Assembly: GCA_964016885.1 (NCBI GenBank)
Contig: OZ024750.1
Location: 32,178,001 to 32,242,000 of the forward strand
DNA: 64,000 nucleotides
Origin: Eledone cirrhosa
Lineage: Eukaryota
Direction: 5' to 3'
Part shown: in pieces, positions 1,992 to 56,947 of the stretch
Position numbering within the stretch: position 1 is the stretch's first letter
Layout of the letters: each line of letters begins with the position of its first letter
Translations under genes and position numbers: made by a program
Notes under the pieces: model-generated
Database searches by the model: none
The model's input: the letters and a program-made list of their open reading frames with translations, nothing else
Told to the model about the DNA's origin: nothing

Positions 1992-2501
1992 GTAATTAAA
2001 AGGACAAAAATTCAGTGTTCCATCATATGGATATTTACTTACATATTACATATGTTTCACTATCGATCAGCTTGAGAATTGATCGATTGATGATCGATCC
2101 GGACTCTGGAATCGGAAGCTCCTCGGATATCTAGACTCACTCGACAGTGAAACGTATGTAATTAAGTATGTATATGATGCAATACTGATTCTTTGTTATC
2201 TTATATATTATTATTATTGACACTCTGCTCCCCACGAGCATCGAGCTCTCATCTTGGCATACCACCTAAGGACGAAATTAATTTGCACCTATATATATAT
2301 ATATGACGGATATTCCTGGCTTCTATTTCTAATTCTTCATTTATTATTTATCTTCATTCATTTTTGTTATTTATACAAAATATATAGAGAGTAACATTAA
2401 CTAATTTCGATCCATTGAGTACACAGCTGAAATTCCGGAATACTATACAAGACGAAAACAATATATATACACACAAACCTACGAACCTATATGTATATAT
2501 A

Positions 2502-2880
2502 TATAAACATGAAGTATAAGTCCACAGTCTAAAATTAACTTAGTTCATACATAGTCGCTGTTATATATATTTCGGTGAAAACCGTTACTCAACAGCTATC
2601 ACCTCATCAGAAATCTAGAATGTGAACTGAAAAACAAAGATAAAATAAAGTTTATTTTTGTTATTTCGATTCGTTGATATGCTCCAGCCCGAATCCAGTC
2701 TTGCTTTCTCAAGGCTCCGGTAGCATATGTTATCACCGAAATATATATAACAGCAACTATGAATAAAGTTAATTTTAACCTGTTGACTTATACTTCGTGT
2801 TTATAAATATACTCTGGAGTTAACAGACCCACTTGCGCACCTCGTCGAGTGCTCTGCGACAGGGAGAGTGTATGTAATAG
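2502..2880 (+). mobile_element. Older palindromic PLE-type unit, same family as 40131-40532; decayed HHR on minus strand at about 2557-2615
   Basis: Imperfect inverted arms 2502-2578 / 2733-2805; minus strand CTGATGA-GGTGA..TCACC-GAAA-TATATA-TA; tail ACTCTGGAGTTAAC..GCGCAC..TCGAGTGCTC matches the reverse complement of 40180-40222. Confidence 0.7.
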
Positions 2881-3629: not shown

Positions 3630-3812
3630 TAGTCACTAAGGAAGTCACAGAATGTGTGATGGCAGAGCTTTGACAATAAACAAATAAACAATAAACAAAT
3701 AAACAACCATCTGGTTATTAAATTAATCGACTGGAAGTTTATAACAAATTGAAGTGAAAACAACAGGTGCGTGTATTTTTATTGGTAGCATGACCCTCCC
3801 AAAGTACAACAA
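3630..3812 (+). mobile_element. Decayed solo pseudo-LTR of the Naiad-like PLE family
   Basis: Aligns by eye to 33912-34122 (GTCACAG..TGTGTGA; AAATTGAAGTGAAA..GGTGCGTG..CATGACCCTCCCAAAGTA); HHR core mutated. Confidence 0.8.
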
Positions 3813-5847
3813 TATATATTTATATAGTATATACAACCTTGTAACAATATGTACGACGCTGTAATAGTAGGGATGACCCTGTAATTGTATACATGACGTG
3901 ATGTGACGTGCCATATATTTTTTGTTTATATGCAAGTGTGACACCATTTGAGATGTAATAAATATTGTTTACCTGAAGAAAAAAATATATATAATTTGAT
4001 ACTGGATATTAATAAACCTGGTTAAAGCCAGGTAGAGCTGCTCCTCACTTATATGATTTACAGGAAAATATTAAGTATTGATTGTTAATAATGACCAAAA
4101 GAGGGAGAAAAAATAAAGAAATTAAAAGAAGAAAAACGAAACATTGATTAAGCAGCGAAAGAAAATAAGATAGGGAGGAACGGACACTATATCCCAGGCT
4201 AAGCAGTGCCTCAGCTCCACCATGCAGACAAAATGGCAAAAGCATTACCAAAGAGAATGACCAGAGACTCCGGCTGAGAGAGCCACCCCACGTCATAGGG
4301 CTCCCTCATCAAGCGGACCACCGTCTTTCCGACTTGCAGTCTTTATTCCACCCACAAGCTCTCAGATATATATATTCATGTTGAGAGCAATATTTGTTTA
4401 TATTTGGATTTCTTTTGGTTATCTTTATTGCAACTGTAGATGTATAACAACAGAAGGGTCGTTTCAGTCCTTTTTTAGTTGGTAGATCTGAAACAACTTT
4501 CATTTTACTACCTAAACAACGACCATTACAACCACCATCTAAACCACCGTCGCCATTACAACGATTGTGTTGAGATATATTTGATGCTTGTATGTCTAGT
4601 AGACAAATATAGTAAAAGGAATTTTTAAAATATTTTTTTAAAATTTAGTGTCAGAAGGAAATGTTTTTTGTCAACAACTATTACAGATCTTCTGGTTCTC
4701 GTGGGGTTTATACAGTTGATAGTTCCGGTGTTCGTGGTACCCCGGACCACATCCCTACTCACTGCTATCGGAACGAGGTTGGCTACACGCAGGTGCCAGC
4801 CCCGCGAGGTGGAGTGGCTGTTTTAGTGCAGCTCCCTCGCCGTAGTTAGGGACAATGCATTCTCTATCATGTCAGCAGCAGAGATCCAGAGGCCGAAGGC
4901 AAGTTAGTTGGTAGTGGTGAATACTAAGTCCGAACGTCACTTTCTACAACTAAAGTATATTTACAAATGCAAACATATAGATGTTAAAACAGTGAAATTT
5001 TATTAGAAGATTGACGTTAGCAGCACAGAAAATTACTGAGAATGTTGTTGAGAAAGTCAGTATGGATGAAGAGAGAAGATGACTCAGTACTAGTGAATGC
5101 ATAAAGTAGAGATGAACTGCAGCTTGGTAGTGACTAGTAGTAGAGTTTGTTGTTAGAGTGGTAAATTATACAGTGTAGGAAGGCAGCGTTCCTGTAGGTT
5201 AGACTACATATTGCGTTGGGGAGTAAGCCTTTGTTGATTAGTTGGGTGGAGTTATACTCGATGTGGTATTGGTTGCCTGCGTTTAGGTGATTTACAGATG
5301 TGGGAGCAGTAGCCTATGGCAGATATTATTTTAGCTTTAAATGTTCGACTGCATTGAGGTTTGTGAATTAGTGCATCTTTTCTGTCCCAGAAAACTATAA
5401 ATAATAACAATTACTCCAGCGTTAACAGCACAATGATAATGTGCGTCTATTTACATAACAGCAACAAATTATAGACTGCTACAGGATATCTTTACATGTG
5501 GATCTCTATATTTCAACCCTGTTTACTGTAGACATATAAAATATTGTACATACTATAGACGAGGATATATTAAACACTTCTATAAGATGGTGCTTAAAAT
5601 AACAACAAAAAGAACAACAGGATCTACCAATACAAACTGGACAAACAATAACTTATATTCTGCCACTAAATGATTCTTAGAACGTACTGTTTACTATTTA
5701 CATTAATTGGTTAATGCAGTCAACCTGAATCGATTCGAACGAATCTCCAATCACAGAAAGGGCCCGTTCTCTTTATTTACTGTCATTGTATTCTATGTGT
5801 AAATATATTATAATTTATAGTTACTTTACCGTTAATAATAATAATAA

Positions 5848-7580: not shown

Positions 7581-7963
7581 TATAGGCCGAATTCTCAACT
7601 TATATTATTTGGTATAATTGTAACGTTTGGTAGAATAATTAACATTCAATGCTCTCTAAACCTTTTCTCACTCTTACTTATTTTTAGTTCAATTAGTCTA
7701 AATGTTTTATACCCATATAGGTAATTCAGCTGACAATCAATGTTTATATTTGATTGACCAACAGTTAAATATATATATATATATATGAGAGACGTAAAAT
7801 AAGAAAATTAGTAAGTAAGTTAATTTTATAATTTTCTTATTTTGCGTCTCTCATATTACTGTTCTGCATCCCATGTATTGAACCACAAAGTTACTAAGAC
7901 AAAACCTATATATTTGCTAGCATAAGTATGCATCTGTGTATATATATGTTACTAGATATATTA

Positions 7964-8005
<42 letters not shown>

Positions 8006-8982
8006 TGGTAAAAAGGTAAAGAAAATGCTGACAAATTTTTCCCAGTGAAAAATAGTTTAATTAGGAATAAGTATAAATTAGTAATAAGTATTAGTTAGTA
8101 TTCAGTTTTAGTTTTAAGTTTTTACCGGTTGCGCATTTCTTATGCTTTTCAAAAATAATTTTGAGGTAGAGTGCTCGTGATTTTTGCTCTAATCTGATCA
8201 GTTTTGGAAATTCTTCTAGTTTTATGTGAAAAAGGTGGCTTGGAATGTATTAAGATTTGGTTGGTTGCTTAATGTCACGTGAATAAGCACTATAAAATTC
8301 GCGCCAATTAGGTTTTTGAAAAATTCTTGTAGTCAAAACTATTTTGATTGGTCGGTAGAAGTCACGTGAATGTTTAAATTGGTTTTACCGCGAGCTGGTT
8401 TCGCGCCAAATGTTGAAACATATTTTTCAGCTCCATCATTTTTTTTTCTTTTTACCAATATATCACAACTCGTGTGTCACACCTCCATAAAAAAAAAAAA
8501 AAAAATAGAGAGAGAGAGAAAAGCTTCTACAGGACGAGAATTGGTTCATTCGTGATAAATCATCAGGAAGCTGTTTGTCCAAATAAATATGGTGGTATTT
8601 ATATATTTTCTGGTGGTAGAAGATGGTGGGGATTGGGATGGGTGGAACTCATTGGTTGATGGGTTTAAATAAACCCCCTTTCTTTAAACCCATCAACCAA
8701 TGAGCTCCAACCATCTTGTAGACACCTGAAATATAGGCATTGTTAGCTTAAGAGAAACTTAAAAATAAGGAATGGCACTCAAACCTGAACTGGCGAAACA
8801 GATCACTTCGGATTTGAACGTGTGTTATATAGTTATAGAGGTATTTATTTACGCTTTAATTTATATTTTTAATTATCGTGTCTATACTCTGCCTTCCATA
8901 GGTTATAGATTCCATACACTGGTGGGTTTTCCCTGTTTTATTGATGGCGCACTGTATCTCTCTCTAGTGTGTTACCTTTTAA

Positions 8983-10099: not shown

Positions 10100-10172
10100 A
10101 TTTTATCTGAAGAGAACACGTTGGCACATGTTATAGAAAAGCCATACGTCTTCGAAATACGTATAATAAAAT
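10100..10172 (+). ncRNA. Type I hammerhead ribozyme motif
   Basis: ATTTTAT-CTGAAGA-GAA.ACGT-TGGC..GCCA.ACGT.TTC-GAAA-TACGTA-TA-ATAAAAT; palindromic stem III ATACGTAT. Confidence 0.85.
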
Positions 10173-10454
10173 AAATAGGAATGGACTAACGCAACCGTAC
10201 TTGTTTATATATATATATTATGATTCAAGATATAGTGAGGCACACAAACATTTTGATCATCAATTGTCCCTCATACCATATAACAATTTCAAATATTTGT
10301 GAACCAACAAACACATATCATTACCAGTACAAAAACTATATCAGCGAGAACAACAGAATTATCGGAACATTGGTAAACTAAACATAGAAATATACAGTGA
10401 ATATCTGTGTATATATAATATATAAGATCAAAAGATGGTTAAATGAGTTCCATG

Positions 10455-10525
10455 TATTTTATTATGCGCATTTCAAAAACAAATATCATCATGCAATAAC
10501 ATTTGTGTTTTCATCAGATAAAATA
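10455..10525 (-). ncRNA. Type I hammerhead ribozyme motif (mirror of 10649-10719)
   Basis: Reverse complement reads TATTTTAT-CTGATGA-stem II-GAAA-TGCGCA-TA-ATAAAATA. Confidence 0.85.
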
Positions 10526-10648
10526 TGAGGACATGATATGAAGGTTAAAAACACTCGTGGATAGTGCAGTTTTAAATCAACATATCATATATGTTGATTT
10601 AAAACTGCACTATCCACAAGTGTTTTTAACCTTCATATCATGTCCTCA

Positions 10649-10719
10649 TATTTTATCTGATGAAAACACAAATGTTATTGCATGATGATATTTGTTTTTG
10701 AAATGCGCATAATAAAATA
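10649..10719 (+). ncRNA. Type I hammerhead ribozyme motif
   Basis: TATTTTAT-CTGATGA-AAACACAAATGTTATT..GATGATATTTGTTTTT-GAAA-TGCGCA-TA-ATAAAATA; 8-bp stem I and palindromic stem III. Confidence 0.85.
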
Positions 10720-10842
10720 CATGGAACTCATTTAACCATCTTTTGATCTTATATATTATGTATACTCCAGTCCTACAAACTGTAGAGTCCTTCTTATCCG
10801 ATATCTGCATTGCTTTATTGTACTACAATAAAACTCACCTCC

Positions 10843-10881
<39 letters not shown>

Positions 10882-14801: not shown

Positions 14802-15052
14802 GTGACCAACCCAAGGACGCGCAAAGCGGATGAAGGTGGACGATATAGGCTTGTAGGGCCAGAAGGGCCAGAAAACCCCAGAAAAAGGATATCATCCTAA
14901 TCAATAGACGTGTCCGAGGAACCTGCGAAACTGGCGTCAGGTAGATCCGCACCTCGAGCTTCTCGCCGGGGAAACAATTGTAACACACAATAAATTGAGT
15001 TCAGATGCATCACTGATTTTTTGTTTTTCATTCTATATTTATATATATATAT

Positions 15053-15330
15053 TAATTTACTTTGCAAAGTTTTTGATATGAAATCGTGTGTGGAAACACA
15101 TATTGTTATATATTGGTTTGGGTTGGTTTTCGCTTCTGTATCTTTTATATCTCCATAGTTAATTATCCGGCAATCAATGTTTATCATTGATTGACTAACG
15201 GTTAAACATACAGATATAAATATATATATGTATAGTCTATCAAAGTTCTTTCGTCACACATCTGTCACATCATCAGTGGTATTATTATGTTTTCTCCCGT
15301 TGTATTGTAATGCCTACGGCATTTTTGTTT
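15053..15330 (-). mobile_element. Solo pseudo-LTR + tail related to the Naiad-like PLE, with HHR at 15238-15281
   Basis: Minus strand CTGATGA-T-GTGACA-GATG-TGTGAC-GAAA-GAAC-TT; tail TAACAATATGTGTTTCCACACACGATTTCA matches 34115-34145. Confidence 0.75.
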
Positions 15331-16067
15331 CATTTATTTATTTATTTATTTATTTATTCTTGTCTCTGTCTCTGTTTGCGCATGTGTGTGTGTGTCTGTG
15401 TACATGTTTGAGTGTATGTGTTTTTGTATTCTATCTTTGTTCACTAATATGCATTTATATGTTTGTTGTTATTGTACTTGTGTATATATTTATTCATTTA
15501 TTTATATTTACCTTAAGTCAGTATTGTTTGTTTGGGTATGGCTGTTGCTGTTATACTTGTGTGTATACATATATAAATGGGGGAAGAAGAAGAAGAAGAA
15601 GAAGAAGAAGAAGAATGATCTACATATACAAAAAAAAATATTGATATAACCTCCATAGTTTCAGTTGAAAGGAAGTGTAGCTACGGTATTTTGTTGTGTA
15701 TTTCAATATATTTTACATGAATTACATGAGTAATTTATTCCATGAGAGAAAATAGGCAAAGATTGTGTCATTATTGAAGCAAGGAAAGAGTAGTATTAAT
15801 CGGGACTTCTCTTTCGATTAGGAAAGCTACTCATTATGAGTAATTTTATATATCTTTCATTCCATCACTTTTATGTAGAGATCAACAGGCACGAAAGCTA
15901 GAACTAAATAAATAAAATACAATGAAATAAAAATATTGAATAAACTAAAGCAGCTAAATGAAATAAAGTGGCAGTCGTAACGGCGACACAGAATGATTAT
16001 TTGTAATTAAATATTGTTATTTTCTTTAATTTTTTCTCTGAATCCATTCCCATTTGTATGCTTTAAA

Positions 16068-19235: not shown

Positions 19236-19268
<33 letters not shown>

Positions 19269-19336
19269 AAGTTAGAACACTGGAAGCTAATATCCGTAGT
19301 AGTAGAGCAGTCAGACCATGGGACGAATTTGGTTGA

Positions 19337-19656
19337 AGTAGTTACACAACAGTTAGTTCACCATACCGAGAACAACTATTTCACCTTCATTTGCATAATG
19401 TGAAACGATTGTTCTGGGTATGGTGAACTAACTGTTGTGTTACTACTTATATATATAACTGCTGACAACATCAACATATTCCTAACAAGCTGATATGTCC
19501 CAAGGCTCTGATACCATCAACACTATACACACAGAGCTGGCATATCTAAGAACTGACTAACTGCCTGATGAGGTCATAGCCATTCGATGGCTATCATCAA
19601 AATATATATAGCAGTAAATAAAGGATTATGAGTTCATGCAATTGACTTATGTTTCG

Positions 19657-21949: not shown

Positions 21950-22334
21950 CCGTATTTCCCGACGTCGAAGACATTACTTTTTTTCCTAAAATAGATCTCA
22001 AAAATCTACCATGCGTCCTGGAGGCTGAAGGGTGTTTATTATTTTCTTTCAAAGGGCGGTGGATTGGCAGTATCGGTAGAGGGTCGGACGCCATGCTTTC
22101 CAGCATAGTTACGTCCCTTTACGATCTGAGTTCAAATCCCGCCGAGGTTGACTTTGCCTTTCATCCTTACGGGGTTGATAAAATAAAGTACCAGTAATGC
22201 ACTGACTGGATAATTGCTGGCCTTGTGCCTAAAGTAGAAACAATTATTTTCTTTCAAATGTGTGTGTGTGTGTGTTGGGGCAAAATTAGGGTGCGTGCCC
22301 GCGGACGAAGCGTCCTCAGCCCCGGAAAATACGG
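21950..22334. mobile_element. pogo/Tigger-like (Tc1/mariner superfamily) MITE with a nested SINE
   Basis: TA-CCGTATTTCCC ... GGAAAATACGG-TA: terminal inverted repeats with TA duplication. Confidence 0.75.
22053..22247 (+). mobile_element. SINE family A nested in MITE
   Basis: Full-length family match; TSD TTATTTTCTTTCAAA. Confidence 0.9.
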
Positions 22335-22591
22335 TAATTTGATATACCCCATAAGGATGAAAGGCAAGATTTGAACTTAGACCTTAAAGGGACATAACTA
22401 TATGTATATTGTCCCCAAAATTATATGATTGTTTCTGATTTAGATTTAGACACATAGTTAACAATTGTTGGGGCACGGGAGAGTCGATTAAATCTTTACC
22501 AGTGCGTTACTGGTACTTTATTTTATCTTCTCTGTAAAGGGCCGTAACTACATGCCGTAAAGCATATGCCGTCCTTTAGGATTAGTTATAT

Positions 22592-23004
22592 AATAATTGT
22601 TTCTACTTTTGGCACAAGGCCACCCAGTGTATTACTGGAACTTTATTTTATCGACCCCGTAAAGATGAAAGGCAAAGTTAACCTCCGCAGGATTTGAACT
22701 CAGATCATAAATGGACGTAACTCTATGCTTCAAAGCATGGTGTCCGACTCTCTACCGATACTGCCAATCCACCGCCTATATAATAATAGTTATATATAAT
22801 ATATAGTTATATAATAATTGTTTCTATTTTAGGCACAAGGCCAGCAATTACCCAGTACATTACTGGTACTTTATTTTATCGACCCCGTAAGGATGAAAGG
22901 CAAAGTTAACCTCGGCAGGATTTGAATTCAGACCATAAAGGGACGTAACTATGCTTCAAAGCATGGTGTCCGACTCTCTACCAATACTGCCATTCCACCG
23001 CCCT
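22592..23004 (-). mobile_element. Two tandem SINE family A copies (22592-22777, 22813-23004)
   Basis: Reverse-complement family match; TAGTTATATAATAAT recurs at the boundaries. Confidence 0.85.
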
Positions 23005-23373
23005 AGTTATATAATAATATCAGATAGTAGGATAGAATATTTAGCTGCTATTTTCAATGTTTTCCTCAAGATTCCCACTTTTCCCCACCATTATACATAT
23101 CTTTGCTACCATATTGGTTGAATTTCATATGACAAAGATTTTGTGGCTATTATGAGTATGACGAATGCCCACATAAACGATTTCTAGCTATTACTGTTTT
23201 AATGCTTTTATCTCGCTATAAACTTTGAACCGAATTGTATTTCGTTAGGATAGTATTACCTGGCCTCATTTTCTCTATTTCCAAATTATATAGCAGATAT
23301 ATTGACGTTTTTCTTTCGTTTTCAAAGAATGAAATTGTCATAATCAAATATGGCCTTTCGACAGCGCTTAATC

Positions 23374-23431: not shown

Positions 23432-23745
23432 GGAGAGGGTCATATTTGTGTAATAATATTGCCAGAATTAATAACAGAACACACACACTGTTTGGTTGGT
23501 TTCGCTTCTGTGTCTTTTATATCGGTTAATTTAATTTATGCGGCCCTCAATGTTAATATTGACTGACCAACGGTCAAAAAGACAGATTCAATATAGACAC
23601 AAACACATATAGTCTAACAAAGTTCTTTCGTTGCACATCTGCAACATCATCAGTGGTGCTATTATGTTTTCTTCTGTTGTATTGTATGCCTACGCCATCT
23701 TTATTTAGTCTGTTTATTTATTAAAAACCTCGCAAAACTAAACAT
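23431..23745 (-). mobile_element. Solo pseudo-LTR related to the Naiad-like PLE, with HHR at 23616-23657
   Basis: Minus strand CTGATGA-T-GTTGCA-GATG-TGCAAC-GAAA-GAAC-TT; ends ATGACCCTCTCC next to (TA)n; alignable to 15110-15330. Confidence 0.75.
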
Positions 23746-24064: not shown

Positions 24065-24131
24065 TATTTTATCTGATGAGGACGTACTGTTGAAGATAGC
24101 TCAGTACCTCTGAAATATGTATAATAAAATA
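24065..24131 (+). ncRNA. Type I hammerhead ribozyme motif between two (TA)n tracts
   Basis: TATTTTAT-CTGATGA-GGA.GTACTG..CAGTAC.TCT-GAAA-TATGTA-TA-ATAAAATA; decayed relative on minus strand at about 5930-5980. Confidence 0.8.
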
Positions 24132-24298: not shown

Positions 24299-24504
24299 CA
24301 TTAATCTTATATATATATATATAATCATTAATCTTATATATATATATATATTACAAATTGTAGATTTAGTCCAGAAATAGCCGTCGAATCGGCTTGAGCT
24401 CTGCCGTCGGGGGTCATACTTTTTCCTATTCCCCACTCTACTTCCCTAAATATTGAGTACTCTGGTGCGTTATGGTCCATTTGGTTACTTACCACAATTC
24501 CTTT

Positions 24505-24550
<46 letters not shown>

Positions 24551-26636: not shown

Positions 26637-26638
<2 letters not shown>

Positions 26639-26777
26639 CGGAAGAAATGTGGTAAGGAACCAGGTGGACCATAACGCAACAAAGTACTCAATACTTAGGG
26701 TAGTAGAGTGGGTAATAGGAACGAGTAGGACCCCGACGGCTTAGCTCAAGCCGTTTCGACGTCCAGAATTAGCCGTT

Positions 26778-26845
<68 letters not shown>

Positions 26846-27051
26846 AACGAGTAGGACCCCGACGGCAGAGCTCAAGCCGTTTCGACGGTTAATTCTGGAC
26901 TAAATCTAATTAGTCCAGAATTAGCCATCGAAACGGCTAGAGCTCAGCCGTCGGGGTCCTACTCGTTCCTATTACCCACTCTACTACCTTAAGTATTGAG
27001 TACTTTGGTGCGTTATGGACCACCTGGTTCCTTACCACATTTCCTTCGTTT
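26637..27051. mobile_element. Two opposite-orientation copies of one tail-bearing palindromic family within one (TA)n tract
   Basis: 26637-26760 is the reverse complement of about 26925-27051; internal palindrome 26841-26972; relatives at 24362-24508 and 41300-41503. Confidence 0.75.
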
Positions 27052-27189
27052 TATATATATATATGTTTCTTCCAGAATACATTTACACACAAACACACAC
27101 ATGCACATATATATATGATATATATATGTGTGCATGTGTGTGTTTGTGTGTAAATGTATTCTGGAAAAAACAAGAGACGAAGAGACCGG

Positions 27190-28308: not shown

Positions 28309-28474
28309 TATTGTTATACTTTGGGAGGGTCATGTTGCCAATAAGAAACACACGCACCAGTTGCTTTCACTTCAATTTAATTTAATATATATTTATAAAT
28401 TTACAAATTTATAAATTTATAAATTTCTGGTTGGTTGGTTGGTTCCACAACCAGATAGTTGTTTATATATATAT

Positions 28475-28519
28475 AGTCATAGTTCTTTCGTCACACACTC
28501 TGTGACCTCTTCAGTGACT
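28475..28519 (-). ncRNA. Minimal type I hammerhead ribozyme motif (mirror of 33912-33956)
   Basis: Reverse complement of the pLTR HHR. Confidence 0.75.
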
Positions 28520-28823
28520 GGGGATTTCTTTCTTCGTTTCTGTGCCTTTCCTTTCTTCTATCCTACGCCATTTTGTTTGTGTGTGGGTTGCGTGCTCAGT
28601 TTGCGCATGCGCCACATCCGGGTGTCTGTGTGTGTTTGTGTTCATTTTTCTATTTTTCTATTTTTATATTTATATTTGTTTGTTTATTTATTTATTTATT
28701 GTTGGTTGGTTGTTTGTTCTATGTGTGTGTGTGTTTTCATTTTGTCTTGTGTGTGTTTTCATTTTGTGTGTGTTTTCAATTGTAAGTTGTTTATATATGT
28801 GTGTGTGTGTTTTCATTTTGTCC

Positions 28824-30035
28824 TTAATTGTAAGTTGTGATGTTGCTGTTCCACTCATATTTTCTATTTAATTTTGGTTTTAATTCTTTTATGCTTACTG
28901 CCTCTGTAATTTGCCTAAACATTGCGTCTTTCTTGTGTGTGGATTCTATTTTTATTTCTATGCTCTCTAATTTACCCCTGTGTTCTATCTTAGCATGTTG
29001 GTAGAGCACAGATGATTCTTTACTATCTTGGAGGTCTCGCCAGTGTTCATTTATTCGTTCCCCTATACTACGAGCTGTCTCACCTATGTACACTATATTT
29101 TTGTTTCTACATTGTCCCTCAGTACATCTTATGCTATATACTACATTTCTAGTTTTACAGTTAATATGGGGGCTTATTTTACAGGTTATACATTTCTTAT
29201 CTATACATGAGGGTCTTTGGAACGGGTATGTCTTGCTAATAAGTGTTTTTACGGAGGTACCAGGTCTTTCTACTATCTTAATATTGAGATTATGTTTCTT
29301 TAGGGCCCTTCTAAATTTGTAGGCTAGTTCACCTCTAGGGGTTGTATTGATGAACATTACACTCTGGTATTTATTGCTATCATACCATGAGTTTATTCTA
29401 TTGGCCTTGTTCTTAGTTCTTTCTATTCTATTCCAAAATTTGCTCCTATACAAGGGGCAGGTCCCATTTATGTCATTATTTACCATTTTTTCCCATTTGG
29501 TTCTGGCTCCTTTATACACTCTGATTCTATCTCTCTGATTGTAGCCAGAGAACTGCATACGGTGGATGAAGTGTTGTATGTGTCTCTCTAGTTCTTCGGG
29601 GTTGCACATGCGGGACACATTTCTCATCACCCGTATCAAATCCGCAATCAGTATGTTGATTTTGGTATGGTCCGAAATGGCCGAGTTTCGGTGGATCAGA
29701 TGTTTGGAAGTCATGGGTTTGGCATAATGGGAATGGAGGATTTGTTTTTGGTTGTTAATAGTATCTAACCAGAGCTCTGTGTCTAGTACAGGTAATCGAT
29801 GGTTGGGGTGTCTACTTGGGTAGTCTATAGTAACTCTAATGCTCTGGTGGATGGAGTTTGCTATTTGCTGGATGCTTTCCATTGTGTTTTTCTCAGGTTC
29901 CTGACTGTTCTTTAGTGGGGGTGTCTTAACTACGATGTTTATATCATCTACGTAGCGGGAGTACATTATCAGGGTTAATCTGTCTTCTAATTGTTCTTTA
30001 AGTTTTTGTTTAAGTCTACTGTCCCACCATACCAT
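28824..30035 (-). pseudogene. Inverted duplicate of the C-terminal 403 aa of the PLE ORF (RT YVDD to GIY-YIG)
   Basis: Translation identical to the end of ORF 30344..33607. Confidence 0.9.
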
Positions 30036-30343
30036 TACAACTCACCAAAAAACAAGCAGATAGGCTAAAACGAACTTTAATTCTAAACATAAAAAAGAAG
30101 ATCTATAGAGAATTAAGTCATCAAGAAAAACTAAAGCGTAACCTAATAGATGAAATATCTAAAATCACCACACCAGCAGAAAAACTAACATTTATAAGCC
30201 TTATACGCCCCGAAGAACAGTACATTACTCAAGAATGTAATAAGCACTTTAACAGAAAATTAAAGTGGCTTAAACAGGCAAAGCTAAATCGGGATACTAT
30301 AGAGTATACCAATAGATATCCCGACAAAATTGACGGTATCAAC

Positions 30344-33300
30344 ATGGCCGACACCTCATTATCTGAAGAGTTCAACAATAAAAATACCAACATTTATGGA
30401 AACACGAAAATAGATAATAATGAAATGTCTGTGTTACGTTTGCCACCCAAATTTGCGACATTCAAGAAGGTAAATATGATTAGTTGTCTGTCAGAAATAG
30501 AAAAATCATTTACGAAACTACGCTGGAGCATCAAAAACAAAAACAAAAGCAACAATATACGCACACACATATACAACACACATCCCAACAACAACAGACA
30601 CACAGACACAAACAATAACAACAACAACAATAGCAACATACCCAGATACAATACCAACAATAGCAACATACCCAGATACAACAGACACGCAGACACAAAC
30701 AACAATAACAACACACACGGAGACAACAATAACAACAACACACACATCAACAACAACAACAACAGCAACATACCCAGATACAACAACAACAGACACGCAA
30801 ACACAAACAACAATAACAACACACACAACAACGATAACACACACACACACGGAGACAACAACACACATCAACAACAACACACATCAACAACAACAACACA
30901 CACACATTCAATGCCTCTCACCACCACTACAATCTTAACAAACACACAGACACAGAAAACAAGTAATGACAGTAGCACAGAAATCAGAGAAATAAGAGAA
31001 AGTAATAGGATTAAAAGGAGTAGGGAGACTAAGGACAAAGAGAATAACCAAGACGAACACACAGACACACAAAATAGGGTAGATAACAACATTGAGCCAG
31101 TGGAAAGAGACAGGAGTAATTATGAGAGACATAGAAACAACCATGAAGCTGAGGCTGCTGCTGTTGGTGGAAATAGAAACAACACAACTAACAATAGCGC
31201 AAGTACACATAAAGCAGCAGCCTGGAACTCTCCGTTTTATAACCACTCCGATAAATCATTCGACCTACGACGAGTCCACGCCACGACTTTGCCATTTAAC
31301 AAACGCACGCAGTTGCCGTCGCAGGTCGATGAACAAACAGAAGCACAATTTAGTATAGCTAAATCCGAACTTAGAAATATTATAGAACAGTATAGCAAGA
31401 AGCATAATAGAATAGAGGCCCAGCAACTGGGAGAAGAATCTGCAAATGGCTTGCGTAAGCTCATGCAGCGCTCGCGTAATGGAGAGATAGCATGCTTTCC
31501 AACAGACAAGTCTGGCAGAATGTCGGTTGACAGCCTGCCAAACTACATCCAGGCAATGCAACCCCACATCACTAACACAAGAGAGGTAACACCACAGGAG
31601 CATGAGGACAGAGAAAAAACCCTCAATGCCCATATGGTGATGTGGACAAATATAATGCAGCCCAACAAAAGGACTGCCAACAACTTCCAGGCCTGGAACA
31701 ATGACGTGCCGGCGTTGTATGGGCTTCGAAAAGACCATAAAACGGGCTGGGACCCTGTCGCGGGACCACCAACACGGCCAGTCTGTGGGGCTAACATTGC
31801 TAGTAACTACAGACTGTCCTACTTCCTCTCCCTGATCATACGCCCCATCATTGAGATGTCCCCAGATGTGTGTGACAGCACGGAGGACCTCCTCAGCAGA
31901 ATCGACGCGGGTAACCGATCTGGGGACCTAACAAACTGCATAATAGGCAGTATGGATGTTGTGTCCCTGTATCCATCTATTGACGTGGATTTTGCTGAGG
32001 AGAAATGCGTCGAAATGATCAGCGAGAGCAAGGTTGAGTTCCGTGGGATTGATACCAGTGAGCTGGGACTTCTACTTAAGCTTACCCATAGTAATAGTTA
32101 CCTAGACACTTATGACCTTAGCAACCTGTGCCCTACAAGACCAGCAAGAGGCAGACCACCTACCATTACCTCAATGGCCAAGAAAACCCACACAGATAGA
32201 TGGAACGGGTGGACCAGAGCCATACGGACACCCGAAAACCACGATGAACTGAAGAAAATGATTGCACATGCGGTAGGGGCCAGCATAAAATTAACCCTTA
32301 AGGAACATATGTTCAAATTTAATGGTAAAACATATGCCCAAGAGGAAGGAGCAGCCATTGGTGTTAGCATTGCAGGCGACATAGCTAACTTGTTCATGGT
32401 ATGGTGGGACAGTAGACTTAAACAAAAACTTAAAGAACAATTAGAAGACAGATTAACCCTGATAATGTACTCCCGCTACGTAGATGATATAAACATCGTA
32501 GTTAAGACACCCCCACTAAAGAACAGTCAGGAACCTGAGAAAAACACAATGGAAAGCATCCAGCAAATAGCAAACTCCATCCACCAGAGCATTAGAGTTA
32601 CTATAGACTACCCAAGTAGACACCCCAACCATCGATTACCTGTACTAGACACAGAGCTCTGGTTAGATACTATTAACAACCAAAAACAAATCCTCCATTC
32701 CCATTATGCCAAACCCATGACTTCCAAACATCTGATCCACCGAAACTCGGCCATTTCGGACCATACCAAAATCAACATACTGATTGCGGATTTGATACGG
32801 GTGATGAGAAATGTGTCCCGCATGTGCAACCCCGAAGAACTAGAGAGACACATACAACACTTCATCCACCGTATGCAGTTCTCTGGCTACAATCAGAGAG
32901 ATAGAATCAGAGTGTATAAAGGAGCCAGAACCAAATGGGAAAAAATGGTAAATAATGACATAAATGGGACCTGCCCCTTGTATAGGAGCAAATTTTGGAA
33001 TAGAATAGAAAGAACTAAGAACAAGGCCAATAGAATAAACTCATGGTATGATAGCAATAAATACCAGAGTGTAATGTTCATCAATACAACCCCTAGAGGT
33101 GAACTAGCCTACAAATTTAGAAGGGCCCTAAAGAAACATAATCTCAATATTAAGATAGTAGAAAGACCTGGTACCTCCGTAAAAACACTTATTAGCAAGA
33201 CATACCCGTTCCAAAGACCCTCATGTATAGATAAGAAATGTATAACCTGTAAAATAAGCCCCCATATTAACTGTAAAACTAGAAATGTAGTATATAGCAT

Positions 33301-33607
33301 AAGATGTACTGAGGGACAATGTAGAAACAAAAATATAGTGTACATAGGTGAGACAGCTCGTAGTATAGGGGAACGAATAAATGAACACTGGCGAGACCTC
33401 CAAGATAGTAAAGAATCATCTGTGCTCTACCAACATGCTAAGATAGAACACAGGGGTAAATTAGAGAGCATAGAAATAAAAATAGAATCCACACACAAGA
33501 AAGACGCAATGTTTAGGCAAATTACAGAGGCAGTAAGCATAAAAGAATTAAAACCAAAATTAAATAGAAAATATGAGTGGAACAGCAACATCACAACTTA
33601 CAATTAA
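30344..33607 (+). CDS. PLE polyprotein: reverse transcriptase + Cys linker + GIY-YIG endonuclease (frame open back to the inversion junction at about 30035; true start lost)
   Basis: Motifs PTDKSG, LYGLRKDHK, PTRPVC, SMDVVSLYPSI, QEEGAAIG, RYVDD, LPVLD; linker CIDKKCITC; VVYSIRC..C..YIGETARSIGERINEH..H..RQITEAVSI..PKLN. Confidence 0.95.
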   Translation: MADTSLSEEFNNKNTNIYGNTKIDNNEMSVLRLPPKFATFKKVNMISCLSEIEKSFTKLRWSIKNKNKSNNIRTHIYNTHPNNNRHTDTNNNNNNNSNIPRYNTNNSNIPRYNRHADTNNNNNTHGDNNNNNTHINNNNNSNIPRYNNNRHANTNNNNNTHNNDNTHTHGDNNTHQQQHTSTTTTHTHSMPLTTTTILTNTQTQKTSNDSSTEIREIRESNRIKRSRETKDKENNQDEHTDTQNRVDNNIEPVERDRSNYERHRNNHEAEAAAVGGNRNNTTNNSASTHKAAAWNSPFYNHSDKSFDLRRVHATTLPFNKRTQLPSQVDEQTEAQFSIAKSELRNIIEQYSKKHNRIEAQQLGEESANGLRKLMQRSRNGEIACFPTDKSGRMSVDSLPNYIQAMQPHITNTREVTPQEHEDREKTLNAHMVMWTNIMQPNKRTANNFQAWNNDVPALYGLRKDHKTGWDPVAGPPTRPVCGANIASNYRLSYFLSLIIRPIIEMSPDVCDSTEDLLSRIDAGNRSGDLTNCIIGSMDVVSLYPSIDVDFAEEKCVEMISESKVEFRGIDTSELGLLLKLTHSNSYLDTYDLSNLCPTRPARGRPPTITSMAKKTHTDRWNGWTRAIRTPENHDELKKMIAHAVGASIKLTLKEHMFKFNGKTYAQEEGAAIGVSIAGDIANLFMVWWDSRLKQKLKEQLEDRLTLIMYSRYVDDINIVVKTPPLKNSQEPEKNTMESIQQIANSIHQSIRVTIDYPSRHPNHRLPVLDTELWLDTINNQKQILHSHYAKPMTSKHLIHRNSAISDHTKINILIADLIRVMRNVSRMCNPEELERHIQHFIHRMQFSGYNQRDRIRVYKGARTKWEKMVNNDINGTCPLYRSKFWNRIERTKNKANRINSWYDSNKYQSVMFINTTPRGELAYKFRRALKKHNLNIKIVERPGTSVKTLISKTYPFQRPSCIDKKCITCKISPHINCKTRNVVYSIRCTEGQCRNKNIVYIGETARSIGERINEHWRDLQDSKESSVLYQHAKIEHRGKLESIEIKIESTHKKDAMFRQITEAVSIKELKPKLNRKYEWNSNITTYN

Positions 33608-33911
33608 GGACAAAATGAAAACACACACACACATATATAAACAACTTACAATTGAAAACACACACAAAATGAAAACACACACAAGACAAAATGAAAACAC
33701 ACACACACATAGAACAAACAACCAACCAACAATAAATAAATAAATAAACAAACAAATATAAATATAAAAATAGAAAAATAGAAAAATGAACACAAACACA
33801 CACAGACACCCGGATGTGGCGCATGCGCAAACTGAGCACGCAACCCACACACAAACAAAATGGCGTAGGATAGAAGAAAGGAAAGGCACAGAAACGAAGA
33901 AAGAAATCCCC

Positions 33912-33956
33912 AGTCACTGAAGAGGTCACAGAGTGTGTGACGAAAGAACTATGACT
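33912..33956 (+). ncRNA. Minimal type I hammerhead ribozyme motif in the PLE pseudo-LTR
   Basis: AGTCA-CTGAAGA-G-GTCACA-GAGTG-TGTGAC-GAAA-G-AA-C-TA-TGACT: 5-bp stem I, 6-bp stem II, vestigial stem III. Confidence 0.75.
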
Positions 33957-34221
33957 ATATATATATAAACAACTATCTGGTTGTGGAACCAACCAACCAA
34001 CCAGAAATTTATAAATTTATAAATTTGTAAATTTATAAATATATATTAAATTAAATTGAAGTGAAAGCAACTGGTGCGTGTGTTTCTTATTGGCAACATG
34101 ACCCTCCCAAAGTATAACAATATCGGTTTCAACACACGATTTCAGATAAAGAATCTTGCTAAACAAATTCAGAAACGAAATATATATATTTATATATATA
34201 TATATATTCGAAAAATATACA

Positions 34222-34620: not shown

Positions 34621-34622
<2 letters not shown>

Positions 34623-39632: not shown

Positions 39633-39783
39633 AGAAAAAAGAAAAAGAAATATATATATGTATAAATATATATATATATAAATATATATGTATATAATGT
39701 AGGAGGTGAGTTTTATTGTAGTACAATAAAGCAATGCAGATATCGGATAAGTAGCACTCTACAGTTTGTAGGACTGGAGTATG

Positions 39784-39973
39784 AATAATTGTTTCTACTT
39801 TAGGCACAAGGCCAGCAATTACCAGTGCATTACTGGTACTTTATTTTATCGACCCCGTAAGGATGAAAAGCAAAGTCAACCTCGGCGGGATTTGAACTCA
39901 GATCGTAAAGGGACGTAACTATGCTGGAAAGCATGGTGTCCGACCCTCCACCGATTCTGCCAATCCATTGGCG
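39784..39973 (-). mobile_element. SINE family A abutting a PLE-type tail (39697-39782)
   Basis: Reverse-complement family match; adjacent sequence is the reverse complement of 10764-10847. Confidence 0.85.
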
Positions 39974-40093: not shown

Positions 40094-40132
<39 letters not shown>

Positions 40133-40270
40133 TTTTGAGTATATGTTGGTTGTATACCAACACCTCAGTTTGCAGGTTGGAGCACTCGACGAAGTGCGCA
40201 GGTTGGTTTGGTTACTCCGGAGTAAAGTAAAATAAATAAGTCAAATCTTTAAAATTTAGCTTCGTTTATT

Positions 40271-40325
40271 ACTGCTATATATATTTCGGTGACAGCCATC
40301 TTTGGCTGTGACCTCTTCAGGCAGT
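40271..40325 (-). ncRNA. Type I hammerhead ribozyme motif
   Basis: Minus strand ACTGC-CTGAAGA-GGTCACAGCCA-AAGA-TGGCTGTCACC-GAAA-TATATA-TA-GCAGT. Confidence 0.85.
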
Positions 40326-40430
40326 CCGAATTCGTGTGGTATAGACAAGTACATATGTTGTTGAGGTGTATAATTTTGTCAATTTTACACCTCAACAAGA
40401 TATGTACTTGTCTATACCACACTAATTCGG

Positions 40431-40485
40431 ACTGCCTGAAGAGGTTACAGTCAAAGATGGCTGTCACCGAAATATATATAGCAGT
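40431..40485 (+). ncRNA. Type I hammerhead ribozyme motif
   Basis: ACTGC-CTGAAGA-GGTTACAGTCA-AAGA-TGGCTGTCACC-GAAA-TATATA-TA-GCAGT. Confidence 0.85.
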
Positions 40486-40545
40486 AATAAACGAAGCTAA
40501 ATTTTAAACATTTGACTTATTATTTTACTTTATTTTATATATGAA

Positions 40546-40675: not shown

Positions 40676-41299
40676 CACATACATATATTCACGGTTTCAT
40701 TTCACAAACCACGTGAGCAATTTTGAATATTTCTGAGTGAAATGAGGAAATTATTACAACTGATTGTCTGCAGTGGAAGTTAATTATATTCAGGCATTAC
40801 ATTTTGAGACAGCAGTAAATTAATATAAAATCATTTTGCCTGGCCTTCCGTCACTCTCAAAATAAATGTTGAAATTGCATTTCTTCTGAAGTACTTACAA
40901 TTAGAGACTTATTTCAAAAGTGATTCTAATAAATGAAATTAATATTAATTAAAGATATCAGTAATTACATTTAATTTTACCGACTTCAATATTGAATTTC
41001 CTTTCTACAGAGTTGAAAAATAATTAAACAATTGATTAATCTCAATAAGATTGATTAACGAATTCATTTACATACCCCCCTCCCATACACACACACATTA
41101 TTATATATATATACACTCACACACATACATATATATACACCCTCACAAACATACATATATATATATACACTCACACACATACATATATATATACACTCAC
41201 ACACATACATATATATATATATATACACTCACACACATACATATATATATATATATACCCTCACACACATACAAATATACACACACACATATATATATG

Positions 41300-41497
41300 G
41301 GAAAAAGTATGACCCCAACGGCAGAGCTCTAGCCGTTTCGACGGCTATTTCTGGACTCAGAAAGTCCAGAAATAGCCGTCGAAACGGCTAGAGCTCTGCT
41401 ATCGGGGTCATACTTTTTCCTATTTCCCACTCTATTACACCAATTATTGAATACTCTGGTGCGTTATGGTCCATCTAGTTCGTTACCACAATTCCTT

Positions 41498-41503
<6 letters not shown>
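41300..41503 (+). mobile_element. Short palindrome (41300-41420) + tail + (TA)n; same family as 26841-27051
   Basis: GGAAAAAGTATGACCCC...GGGGTCATACTTTTTCC, then tail CACTCT..TGGTGCGTTATGGTCCA..ACCACAATTCCTTTG. Confidence 0.75.
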
Positions 41504-45159: not shown

Positions 45160-45200
<41 letters not shown>

Positions 45201-45205
<5 letters not shown>

Positions 45206-45666
45206 AATAATATAACAAGGACGATTGGTTACTCCTTCATTACGTCTATTGGTTGGTGACTGACGCGCGCTTCGCCACTGATCAGCTCAAGGTTCGATCT
45301 GTATCGATCGGACCCGACTCTGTAATGCACGATTCGTCAGATCCTTTGTAATGATAATGGAAAAAGGCGAAAAAGATATCGGATGCTGAATTTCCCGACG
45401 ACAGAGTTCTGTCGACATTACACGGGGTCTGACGAGCCGCGGCTACAGAGTCGGGTCTGATCGATACAGATCGAACATACGGCTGATCAGTGGCGAAACG
45501 CGCGTCACCAAACAATAAACGTAATGAAGGAGTAACCAATCGTCCTGGTTATATTATGTGACTATAATACACTCTGTCTAGCTCTACACTTCGAAACTGA
45601 AGTGAACCTAAACATCGAGTGCTCAACTGGGTGAACCTACAGTAACTCCAAGTTACACTACCTGGA
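45201..45666 (+). mobile_element. Palindromic PLE-type unit (arms about 45201-45341 / 45417-45563) + tail, between (TA)n tracts
   Basis: Imperfect inverted arms; HHR in right arm, GAAA-to-GAAG mutant in left arm; tail contains TCGAGTGCTC. Confidence 0.8.
45426..45509 (+). ncRNA. Type I hammerhead ribozyme motif with extended stem II
   Basis: GGT-CTGACGA-GCCGC...GTGGC-GAAA-CGCGCG-TC-ACC; palindromic stem III ACGCGCGT; GUC cleavage triplet. Confidence 0.7.
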
Positions 45667-45689
45667 TATATATATATATATATAAATTT

Positions 45690-46590
45690 CATGGTCAGTG
45701 TTCAAGTTTCAGACTCGTTCAGCAGCGCACACTCCACTACAGCAATGAAGAGACGGATCTTCAGGTCTTTAGGAAGGTCCGACTTCCACACCAATCTCAA
45801 ACTGTGGCACACCACCCAGGCTTTGCTCTTCCTCTCAACCACATCATCTTCCGTATTCCCGATCTTTGCTCCCAGATACAGGAAGGCTTCAAACCAATTC
45901 TAGCGGCTTCCCGCCTACATTCATAATCTTCTCTGGCTTCTTAATATTCTCTACCAGATACTTCGTCTTAATCTCATTCATTTTCAGCCCACACTCATTG
46001 ATACTGTCTCCACCTCCAGCATCATCTCCTCTGCCTCCTTCACTGTTTGTTACCAGAACTATGTCATCGGCAAATTCAGCATCCGATATCTTTTACGCCT
46101 TAACTCTTCTGCTCTGAGCCAGTGTTACAGTAAAGCCAGAGTCCTGGTATTTCTCTAGCGCAAAGCCCTTAGAATAGTCCACTGCGATGATAAAAAGGTA
46201 GGGAGCCAATGTATCTCCCTGGAGCACTCCAGCCAGTATCTCAAAGAACTCCGTCATCCCATCAGGTGTAATGACTTGGGCTTTGGAGTAGAGCAGATGG
46301 TGGATGGGTGCTACACGAGAATGCTGAGGATGGCTCTGAACATTAATCAGTATACACTGAGGATGAAGACCTCAGAGCTGTACGGGAGCCTCCCAAAAGT
46401 CAGCTCGAAAGTAGTACAGAGGAGACTGAGGTTAGCTGGACATGCTCACCGACATACATCTAGAAGAGGAAGACCGAGGTTGACATATGTTGATGCCCTA
46501 AGGACAGACACTAGTCTCTGGAGACGCAGGCCATGGCAGTGATGATGAGGGACAGAGACCATGGATCTCGGAAATGTTACCCGCCCTAGA
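45690..46590. pseudogene. Degenerate RTE-clade LINE with internal inversion (RT core minus 45690-46275; 3' end plus 46276-46590)
   Basis: Minus strand VITPDGMTEFFEILAGVLQGDTLAPYLFIIAVDY..DAEFADDIVL; plus strand DGCYTRMLRMALNI..LYGSLPKVS..RRLRLAGH..RRGRPRLTYVD. Confidence 0.85.
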
Positions 46591-47561
46591 CATATATAAA
46601 TTTACATATATATATATACGGTATATAATTTTTCTTATTGTTATATATACTGTTATACAGATCATGGTATTATGTATCATAAAGCTTGCAGATGTTTTTT
46701 TTTCTGTTTATTTGTTTTAATATTCATGTTGTTGTATTATCGAAAATCATAAAATGAGTCTTGTGAGGAAGTTAAATTTCCGCTTACGCCTATGCTTCAT
46801 CCAAAAATTCACATAACCTGACACGCCACTGACCTAGAGCATTTCATGTTTCTCGAGAAACGTAGGAATTCTGTAATTTCTACGACGATCAAAAGAATTG
46901 TTAAACATATTCTGGCTAAGTCTAGTAAGCTATTGATTTGTATGTAATTTGCTGGAATACACGTTTGCCAACATAATTGCGATTGCACATTTTAGATTTA
47001 CTAAGGATTGCCGTTACCGAAAAGTCTAGATTAACTAAACTAATAATTTACTCACCAATTTCTCTTGCCTCATTAAGTTAAAGACTAGCAGGAAGCAAAA
47101 TAAGAAAATTGTATTTGATTTCCAAGTGATAGTTTGTAAGAAAATCTTTGGCAAATATATCCATGCAACAGAAAATTGTTAGCACGAGATAAAATCGAAG
47201 ATAATTTCACTATAATGTGTATGAAAATTCTGGCATATTTTCAATGAAGAATTACTGTTTAAAAGAACGGCGGTGAATTCTATCAAGTAAAACTGTAATA
47301 TATATCTAAAATTTTTAAGTAAAAACATTTTCGTTTATATTTTTAAAAAGTGGTTATTCAAGAGAGGACAAGCATTATTCATTTTTTAAATGTATGTTTT
47401 CATAATCCTTAAGATGATAATATCAGTTGCACCACATTAACGTGTACGACAATATCTTGGAAATAGATGGCCGGGTGAAGATTTATGTTTATATGTTTTG
47501 TTTGAATGTGGGGTTGGCTTTGTTTCTTCCTCTTCTTAATATTATTTTTATTATTATCATA

Positions 47562-48706
47562 AGGGCGGTGGATTGGCAGTATCGGTAGTGGGTCGGACGC
47601 CATGCTTTGCAGTAAAGAGTTACGGCTCTTTATTATCTGAGCTCAAATCCCGCCGAGATTAACTTTGCCTTCCATACTTATGGAGTCGATGAAATAAAGT
47701 ACCAGTCACGCACTGGTTCGATTTAATCGACTTTCCCCTCCCCCCAACTTACTGGCCTTGTGCCTATATAGGGTTGGACGCCATGCTTTCTAGCATAGTT
47801 ACGTCCCTTTACTGTCTGAGTTCAAATCCCATCGAGGTTAACTTTGCCTTTCATCCTTATGGGGTCGATAAAATAAAGTACCAGTCACGCACTGAGGTCG
47901 ATTTAATCGACTTTCCCCTCCCACCAAAAATATTCTTGGCCTTATGCTTAGATCTGAAACCATTATTATTAGAATTGGCAGTATCGGTAGAGGGTCGGAC
48001 ATGCTTTCCAGCGTAGTTACGTCCCTTTACGATCTGCGTTCAAATCCCGCCGAGGTTAACTTTGCCTTTCATCCTTACGGGGTCGATAAAATATAGTACC
48101 AGTAATATACTGAGTAATTGCTGGCCTTGTGCCAAAAGTAGAAAGAATTATTATTATTATTATTGTTAGAGTATCAGACGCCATACTTTGCAACATAGAG
48201 TTATGGCCCATTTCATTCTGAGTTCGAATCCCGCCGAGGTTAACTTTGTCTTTCATCCTTACAGGGTCGATAAAATAAAGAACCAGTAATGCACTGGGTA
48301 ATTGCTGGCCTTGTGCCTAAAGTAGAAACAATTATTATTATTATTATTGTTAGAGGGCGGTGAATTGGCAGTATCAGTAGAGGGTTGGACGCCATGCTTT
48401 CTAGCATAGTTACGTCCCTTCACGGTTTGAGTTCAAATCCCGTCGAGGTTAACTTTGCCTTTCATCCTTACGAGGTCGATAAAATAAAGTACCAGTAATG
48501 TACTGGGTAATTGCTGACCTTGTGCCAAAAAGTAGAAACAATTATTATTATTATTATTGTTAGATTGTCAGAGGCCATACTTTGCAGCATAGAGTTATGG
48601 CCCATTTCATTCTGAGTTCGAATCCTGCCGAGGTTAACTTTGCCTTTCATCCTTACGGGGTAATGCATTTGGGTAATTGCTGGCTTTGTGCCAAAAGTCG
48701 AATTAT
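47562..48706 (+). mobile_element. Tandem array of six SINE family A copies
   Basis: Repeated B-box/body units, several separated by (ATT)n linkers. Confidence 0.85.
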
Positions 48707-48869
48707 TATCATTATTGCTAGACAGTTCAGGAGAGAATATATAATAAATGTGAACAAATAAATCATGACTAAGCGGTAATAGATCCTTTGATGTAGAAAT
48801 GATTACTGGATAACAGTTTATTATAAAATCAGGAGTATTAATAACTTACGCTATACCAATCACATCAGC

Positions 48870-50235: not shown

Positions 50236-50271
50236 GAGCTGAAGATCCGCTGAGGTGAAACAATTGTTCTC
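50236..50271 (+). ncRNA. Compact type I hammerhead ribozyme motif
   Basis: GAG-CTGAAGA-TCC-GCTGA-GGT-GAAA-CAATTG-TT-CTC; palindromic stem III; weak stems I and II. Confidence 0.55.
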
Positions 50272-50326
50272 GGTATGGTGAACTAACTGTTGTGTTACCA
50301 CTTTTATATATATATATATAACATAA

Positions 50327-53217: not shown

Positions 53218-53722
<505 letters not shown>

Positions 53723-56800: not shown

Positions 56801-56947
56801 GTTAATTTGTTTGTTTGTTAATGGCAGCAATGGGAGTTTGTGCAGTGGGGTGATAGTGGAGGGTGGTGCTGGGTGATAGCTCGAATGTTTTTTTCCAGTT
56901 CTTTTGCCAGATTCATTATGGCTAAAAAAGAGGAAGAAGTTTCCTGT
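53810..56947 (-). CDS. LINE ORF2: AP endonuclease + reverse transcriptase (stop-to-stop frame; no AUG before the endonuclease domain)
   Basis: LTETHL, YRPP, MGDFNLP, LDLIF, SDH; [44 protein letters not shown]. Confidence 0.95.

Follow-up and report, generated by a model that had tools for sequence, protein, structure and literature searches.

A palindromic, hammerhead-bearing insertion in Eledone cirrhosa with the likely footprint of Penelope-like elements

Insertions of EN+ Penelope-like elements (PLEs) have been described as comprising an inverted 5'-truncated copy and a one-sided tail of 30-40 bp, with targeting to TA repeats (PMC8557442), and inverted pLTRs, tails, junction palindromes and Asn-rich inserts are on record for PLEs (PMC3846280); non-autonomous PLEs are also already known. 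The formation of such a head-to-head insertion with a one-sided tail is called unresolved in PMC8557442; self-priming has been proposed (PMC3846280), as has EN-mediated resolution of the tail (PMC8557442). In vitro, the Poseidon PLE of Anolis cuts AT-rich DNA and extends both strands, and two RT start sites on its RNA delimit the tail (PMC11167929); the main text of that study does not address head-to-head pairs and gives a start site that is no different between the strands. Metazoan PLE hammerheads have been reported to occur in pairs that lie on opposite strands at distances of 100-700 bp and are attributed to truncated PLEs (PMC4209133), and metazoan non-LTR retrozymes have been proposed to be PLE-dependent (PMC7229834; bioRxiv 10.64898/2026.07.22.740005). 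Further related literature includes PMC7229834, PMC9977147, PMC13282606, and PMC2377424.

The window (the whole 64-kb stretch of DNA analysed here; 33% G+C and rich in (TA)n) contains an insertion that is real and young, belongs to a hammerhead-bearing family, and shows this known PLE footprint (Table 1). As the initial annotation had described, the focal unit is a near-perfect palindrome of 357 bp with one outward-reading hammerhead per strand: two inverted arms of 177 bp differ at two positions (10618 and 10760) and meet head-to-head across a 3-nt loop, CAT (10586-10588). The one-sided tail of about 80 bp that ends in (TA)n was likewise correctly recognized, and measures 82 bp. The direct arm is 5'-truncated, because other family copies extend upstream of 10589, and the tail belongs to the element, because a tail-only copy exists elsewhere in the window. 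Both arms carry A at 10648, where C accounts for 99.6% of contig depth in run X3, and A at 10730, where C or T accounts for 92%; since these rare alleles are common to both, the arms would derive from one template or one source locus. The focal unit contains no ORF and has no blastn match to the coding PLE in the window, and the upstream extension of the family (30 letters of which are visible in reads) is absent from the 64 kb.

Like the EN+ PLE insertion unit (PMC8557442; PMC3846280; Penelope of D. virilis, PMC2377424), the focal unit has a head-to-head inverted copy, a tail at one end only, palindromic junctions, and a hammerhead near the 3' end, which for the focal unit is predicted from motif and fold. 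The (TA)n target bias of the Hydra, Naiad, and Neptune types is matched too, behind both fixed 3' ends of the focal family. It differs from the described units in having neither an ORF nor an identified coding partner and in that the junctions of its family cluster at one point; moreover, tails in the window span 47-97 bp, beyond the published 30-40 bp. Judged by its anatomy, the focal insertion would work like a PLE insertion, and it is this anatomy that may link the focal family to a PLE enzyme. Being short, AT-rich, non-coding, high-copy, and equipped with a type I hammerhead, the family also resembles non-LTR retrozymes (PMC7229834; bioRxiv 10.64898/2026.07.22.740005); however, these are defined by head-to-tail arrays and circular RNA, whereas the focal locus is arranged head-to-head, each strand having one hammerhead. 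The locus has no two head-to-tail hammerhead units, and we reject it as a retrozyme array; no tandem joint of the family is among the joints listed (best 15 of 89). The focal family was not found in the sources searched, although it may already be present in the consensus libraries of PMC8557442 and PMC13282606, and exact-pattern scans gave 0 loci in metagenome contigs, prokaryote genomes, and viral contigs.

Table 1. Coordinates of the focal unit, the coding PLE and further arm-arm-tail units in the window.
Feature	Positions	Strand	Details
Inverted arm without tail (focal)	10409-10585	-	outer end (mirror of 10764/10765) adjoins short TA run
Minimal type I hammerhead, predicted	10455-10525	-	core from 10517; predicted cut after 10463
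Direct arm with tail (focal)	10589-10765	+	5'-truncated
Minimal type I hammerhead, predicted	10649-10719	+	stem I 8 bp; predicted cut after 10711
One-sided tail (focal), 82 bp	10766-10847	+	part of element; family reads cross tail to 10847, then TA
(TA)n target tract	10846-10881		seen in the sequence
Tail-only copy of focal family	about 39697-39781	-	adjoins SINE-like repeat (at 39784)
Inverted tail-less arm of coding PLE	28309-30035	-	1727 bp, 0 mismatches
5'-truncated coding PLE	30036-34122	+	frame open to 33607; hammerhead 33912-33956
Coding PLE tail, 47 bp	34123-34169	+	followed by TA-rich tract
Second family	40131-40532		153-bp arms, 5-nt loop, 92-bp left tail, hammerhead in both arms
Older copy of the 40131 family	2496-2880		87-bp shared arms (86%), 146-nt spacer, related tail; hammerhead core confined to one arm
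Third family	26841-27051		63-bp arms, 6-nt loop, ~79-bp tail, no full hammerhead core
Copy of the 26841 family	41297-41503		61-bp arms, 5-nt loop of different letters, ~80-bp tail
45201 unit	45194-45666		~155-bp arms (84%), 62-nt spacer, ~97-bp tail, hammerhead core on one arm
Small unit	7783-7907		32-bp arms, 11-nt loop, ~51-bp tail, no hammerhead core
Additional unit outside the nine of the initial annotation	19267-19455		52-bp arms, 9-nt loop, ~69-bp left tail, TA at both ends

The two focal hammerheads, predicted from motif and fold, have a long stem II and an AUA cut site; on the plus strand, the parts are a core (10657-10663), stem II (10664-10699), GAAA (10700-10703), and a palindromic stem III. 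In common with the hammerheads of PMC4209133, the focal motif has a type I core, a long stem II, and a stem III whose palindrome suits dimers, but it departs from that consensus by a longer stem I (8 bp) and stem II (~15 bp) and by A-U in place of the usual G10.1-C11.1. A looser hammerhead scan returned seven loci in the window, compared with 0.09 on average and at most 1 in 100 block shuffles; it missed the two hammerheads of the coding PLE, as well as plain-pattern cores at 2570, 34749, and 45429, whereas a strict scan returned only the two of the PLE, the focal motif being missed through a mismatch in stem II. No hammerhead is among the Rfam matches listed (150 of 196), and the palindrome centre has sub-threshold miRNA matches in Rfam. 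Pairing is kept in 7 of 8 stem II variants in the reads (assessed by hand), but about 60% of transitions preserve pairing anyway, and we discount these variants as evidence of pairing. Elsewhere in the window, a hammerhead at 871-1013 combines a 10-bp stem I with a palindromic stem III, and an insert of 104 nt takes the place of stem II. Single hammerheads at 10100-10172 and 24065-24131 have the stem I of the focal family with different stems II and III, and each lies ~40-55 nt before a TA run, resembling tail-less arms.

Read-through RNA from either strand is predicted to form a 177-bp hairpin (-288.7 and -291.4 kcal/mol), compared with about -10 to -11 kcal/mol for the fold of the hammerhead itself, and on both strands the antisense arm would be transcribed first. 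The self-masking ribozyme within a long dsRNA hairpin that had been proposed for this locus is thus upheld as a folding prediction. Such masking would require no selection, since geometry alone yields the hairpin. siRNAs matching inverted regions of Penelope have already been described (PMC3681739).

The focal unit was compared with 7 of 20 public runs (X1, X2, X3, X4, X18, X19, and X20). None of the listed runs is marked long-read; the raw reads are short Illumina reads, and RAD libraries sample few loci. X4 gave 32 contigs, and the small shares in X4-X17 are no evidence of distribution. The focal family is very abundant, with a summed contig depth of 10^5-10^6 over the focal unit versus 5.16 on the sole flank contig, values that are not copy numbers. 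Two fixed 3' ends were identified, both followed by (TA)n: one at 10764 (57, 53, and 56 contigs in three runs; 274, 222, and 203 raw reads) and a second at 10847 (1225, 1670, and 1362 raw reads, probably from few RAD loci); TA after the tail is also found among the loose ends listed for the family (there are 321 more). Just upstream of 10764, summed contig depth is ~2-3 times as high as over the tail (in X3, ~2.2 million versus 0.8-1.2 million), which hints, roughly, that each tail is matched by one or more tail-less ends.

Arm lengths and loop junctions, which the initial annotation had allowed to be either fixed or variable among copies, proved variable, with 89 head-to-head joints (contigs of X1, X2, X4, and X18) and at least three loop forms. 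In the best supported 15 of the 89 joints, one side lies at 10579-10589 in 14, the partner side varies from joint to joint, and in 5 the partner side falls within the tail. Four different opposite-strand joints are present in raw Illumina reads (1-3 read starts each): 10587/10752 in all three libraries, 10666/10827 and 10615/10692 in two of three, and 10589/10816 in one of three; these reads do not reach far enough to reveal whether a lopsided joint has a tail on its long arm. The clustering of junctions at 10589 is a new detail, and this position is probably a template end or stop. It is passed by other copies and is not the absolute end of the family: loose ends before 10589, found in 278, 354, and 409 raw reads of three runs, lead into one non-palindromic upstream sequence.

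These data bear on the initial proposal of a class of non-autonomous palindromic ribozyme elements, transcribed and reinserted as whole hairpins, which we regard as unlikely. The same symmetric centre does recur, minus 5 letters at 10581 (10 and 13 contigs, summed depth 9303 and 8385) or minus 2 letters at 10587 (6, 8, and 3 contigs), deletions that leave 0- or 1-nt loops, and it is possible that a subset of the focal family amplifies as a palindrome. For the focal family as a whole, however, the proposal is not supported: at least three loop forms exist at the focal centre, the family has 89 joints, 278-409 reads per run extend into the non-palindromic upstream sequence, and the fold is symmetric in only a small minority. 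Raw-read depth is 3.6, 0.3, and 0.3 to the left of the centre versus 380, 362, and 477 to the right (in X3 contigs, 4,315 versus 284,837), so that less than 1% of raw-read depth spans the focal centre, a rough floor in view of possible under-amplification of hairpins and of the few loci that RAD libraries represent. Long inverted arms between TA tracts would also be expected of a DNA-transposon MITE with terminal inverted repeats, whose TA target duplication could sit inside (TA)n. This alternative is extremely improbable: the 82-bp tail is outside the inverted repeat yet part of the family, some copies consist of the tail alone or of a single arm, neither size nor junction is constant (the 89 joints and the upstream-extended copies), and the same layout occurs in an RT/GIY-YIG element within the window. 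The inverted repeats are not both termini and copy size is not uniform, and the reads and the tail-only copies largely refute a MITE. Because junctions vary, copies pass the fold, and less than 1% of depth spans the centre, the focal family is neither a fixed palindromic element nor a MITE.

We consider it very unlikely that the palindrome is a fold-back artefact of sequencing or assembly. The structure of the focal locus is known from the assembly, with no record in the seven public runs joining unique flank to arm, no listed run is marked long-read, and the arms of the coding PLE are 100% identical, all of which an artefact would accommodate. Nevertheless, the focal arms differ at two positions and the arms of other units are only 82-95% alike, the tail-less end coincides with a family-wide fixed point, and raw short reads of all three further libraries contain head-to-head joints.

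The same layout at a 5.9-kb scale, in a coding PLE at 28309-34169, was confirmed, with a 1727-bp inverted arm and a 47-bp tail; the direct copy is 5'-truncated, because its frame enters from the inverted arm. This frame is a single ORF with an RT (YVDD), a CX4CxxC linker, and GIY-YIG at its C terminus. The whole protein as query gave no Pfam match; matches were obtained to GIY-YIG (PF01541, E 1.8e-5, above the cut-off) and RVT_1 (E 2.6e-4, below the cut-off). A PDB search gave only a weak match to a homing endonuclease (E 0.15). There are 116 homologs, the best a protein named for Octopus vulgaris with 70% identity. Neptune and Nematis PLEs have a CX2-5CxxC linker and a CCHH motif, in contrast to the CxCX5C linker, absence of CCHH, and short element of the Hydra clade (PMC8557442). 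With CX4CxxC at aa 1071, two Cys before YIG, and His at about 1125 and 1141 (CCHH), the coding PLE is by its predicted protein motifs of the Neptune or Nematis type; assignment to the Hydra clade is rejected, as the linker is not CxCX5C, CCHH is present, and the element is not short. At ~30550-30950, the frame includes, unbroken, an Asn/Thr/His-rich simple repeat, resembling the N-rich inserts that rotifer PLEs carry (PMC3846280). Older pieces of 3' end with a relationship to the coding PLE lie at 3631-3815, 15034-15346, 23491-23722, and 53162-53233, and include tail-less, tailed, and tail-only forms.

The initial annotation had placed the arm-arm-tail layout at nine further places in the window, with mirror-image hammerheads and unrelated sequences. 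The layout was recovered at seven of these (2502, 7783, 26841, 40131, 41300, 45201, and the coding PLE) but not at 34621, where the unpaired part is ~180 bp and itself contains a hammerhead core (34749); at 1-1200, the window begins inside an arm, and SINE-like copies crowd the spacer. Mirror-image hammerheads proved to be confined to two of the nine (40131 and the PLE); 2502 and 45201 have a full core on one arm, and a pattern search for CUGANGA...GAAA found no core at 7783, 26841, or 41300. Nor are all units unrelated in sequence, given that 2502 and 40131 belong to one family, and 26841 and 41300 to another, of which further copies are at 41297-41503 (the 41300 unit), 24351-24508, and 26638-26780. 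The last of these is a reversed copy whose inverted junction is collapsed and has two steps; a TA tract lies directly between it and the 26841 unit. A search for common structure among 11 tails gave z of -2.46 to +1.12 with one value below -2, which does not support a shared structure.

Several further observations concern these units and their surroundings. In the 45201 unit, 48 of the 62 spacer bases (45364-45411) are 92% identical to 46054-46101 on the opposite strand, 640 bp away, around the catalytic motif of a degenerate RT-like frame; from this match, the piece is possibly captured filler. The RT-like frame (46096-46371) has an RVT_1 match of only E 0.13 and no tblastn match to either RT of the window; by its motifs, it may be an RTE-type LINE. 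The 19267 palindrome turns immediately before the core's GAAA half, and this family has a single tail-less arm with a hammerhead-like core at 50239-50305. Short palindromes at 27065-27171 and 8637-8715 have no obvious tail or hammerhead. A SINE-like family of ~190 bp is present in many copies, some in tandem (208-641, 22053-23019, 47540-48722, and others), and between two long TA-rich arrays an open 1045-aa endonuclease-RT LINE frame (53810-56947, minus strand) matches RVT_1 and Exo_endo_phos_2 in Pfam.

The initial annotation attributed all these units to one integration route into TA repeats. As a PLE-type route, this is supported by the focal anatomy and by the TA that follows both fixed ends, and it is largely in print; that some form of it operates, whether by priming from two ends or by self-priming, we judge to be highly probable. 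For the focal unit itself, we lean, at slightly better than even, to its being a 5'-truncated head-to-head pair for which a PLE RT/GIY-YIG enzyme primed both cut strands and the cDNAs were joined. A Penelope-like enzyme of this type would cut both target strands in (TA)n; one strand would prime at the end of the tail, giving the tailed arm, and the other at the start of the tail, giving the tail-less arm, with one RNA, or RNAs from one source locus, as templates. Each cDNA would stop upstream, often at 10589 as the likely 5' end of the template or a strong stop; where both reach 10589, a near-perfect palindrome with a 0-3-nt loop would result, and otherwise a lopsided joint. The mirror-image ribozymes and the masking hairpin would be by-products. 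L1 twin priming, in which two primers from one target site lead to 5' inversion, resembles this route in its two primers at one target site, but L1 arms are non-duplicate and the second start is not fixed, whereas the focal arms overlap and both starts are fixed.

Two-end priming is favoured by the two fixed 3' ends of the focal family (10764 and 10847), which match the two RT start sites of the Anolis PLE (PMC11167929), and the layout agrees with the legend of Fig. 2 in PMC8557442 and with PMC3846280. A fold-back origin, as suggested in the initial annotation, is itself a published candidate: with PLE machinery and priming from a single strand, either the cDNA or an antisense template would fold back and self-prime, and the endonuclease would resolve the product at the tail boundary. 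We hold this to be a serious alternative, but less probable. Self-priming would account directly for the symmetry of the units, seven of nine small two-armed units having loops of 1-11 nt. It also fits the tailed arm being the longer in the coding PLE (4.1 versus 1.7 kb) and two copies of the 26841 family that turn within ~5 nt of each other; the rare alleles common to both focal arms suit it equally well. The tight loops count against two-end priming, as near-symmetry exceeds that of independent truncation (P from 0.026 to 3e-6 by assumed range, biased by palindrome detection; the count omits the PLE, 1-1200, and 8637). Two-end priming therefore needs a shared stop, because most small units are near-symmetric, and the 10589 hotspot may be one.

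Against self-priming, the tail boundaries have been mapped in vitro as RT start sites (PMC11167929), and the 0-1-nt loops in the focal family would leave too little room for a simple snap-back. Single arms with tail-less ends exist as well, at 3631-3815 (with the same end base as the inverted arm of the PLE) and 50253-50305. At 26841, the tail-less arm is the longer by ~5 nt, and the loop letters belong to it; this argument from loop orientation concerns one case, and a loop can be flipped later through recombination between arms. The foreign filler at 45364-45411, 48 nt of RT-like DNA in the 45201 spacer, is consistent with what end-join filler would be, again in one case. Overall, the two fixed 3' ends, the lopsided junctions, and the 0-1-nt loops suit two-end priming somewhat better than a fold-back. 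No title or abstract opening in our literature search states a two-end model, although Figs S1-S2 of PMC11167929 may bear on mechanism.

The anatomy of the focal unit is already published, and the unit is likely a PLE footprint and not a new kind of palindromic element; the value of the discovery is accordingly modest. Annotation tools can mistake such units for MITEs or miRNA hairpins. It is conceivable, though doubtful, that the focal family is a short non-coding hammerhead RNA with its 5' end near 10589, copied by a PLE dimer, of which some hairpins re-amplify whole. If so, double run-off from two fixed starts, by a PLE enzyme dimer on the two ends of one cut, would repeatedly give perfect palindromes, each silencing the ribozyme that it carries, and the very high copy number of such a family would allow the inverted-insertion route of PLEs to be settled by junction counts. 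The focal locus alone does not decide between two-end priming and self-priming, but its family, being abundant and having two sharp 3' ends and many junctions, is suited to separating the two.
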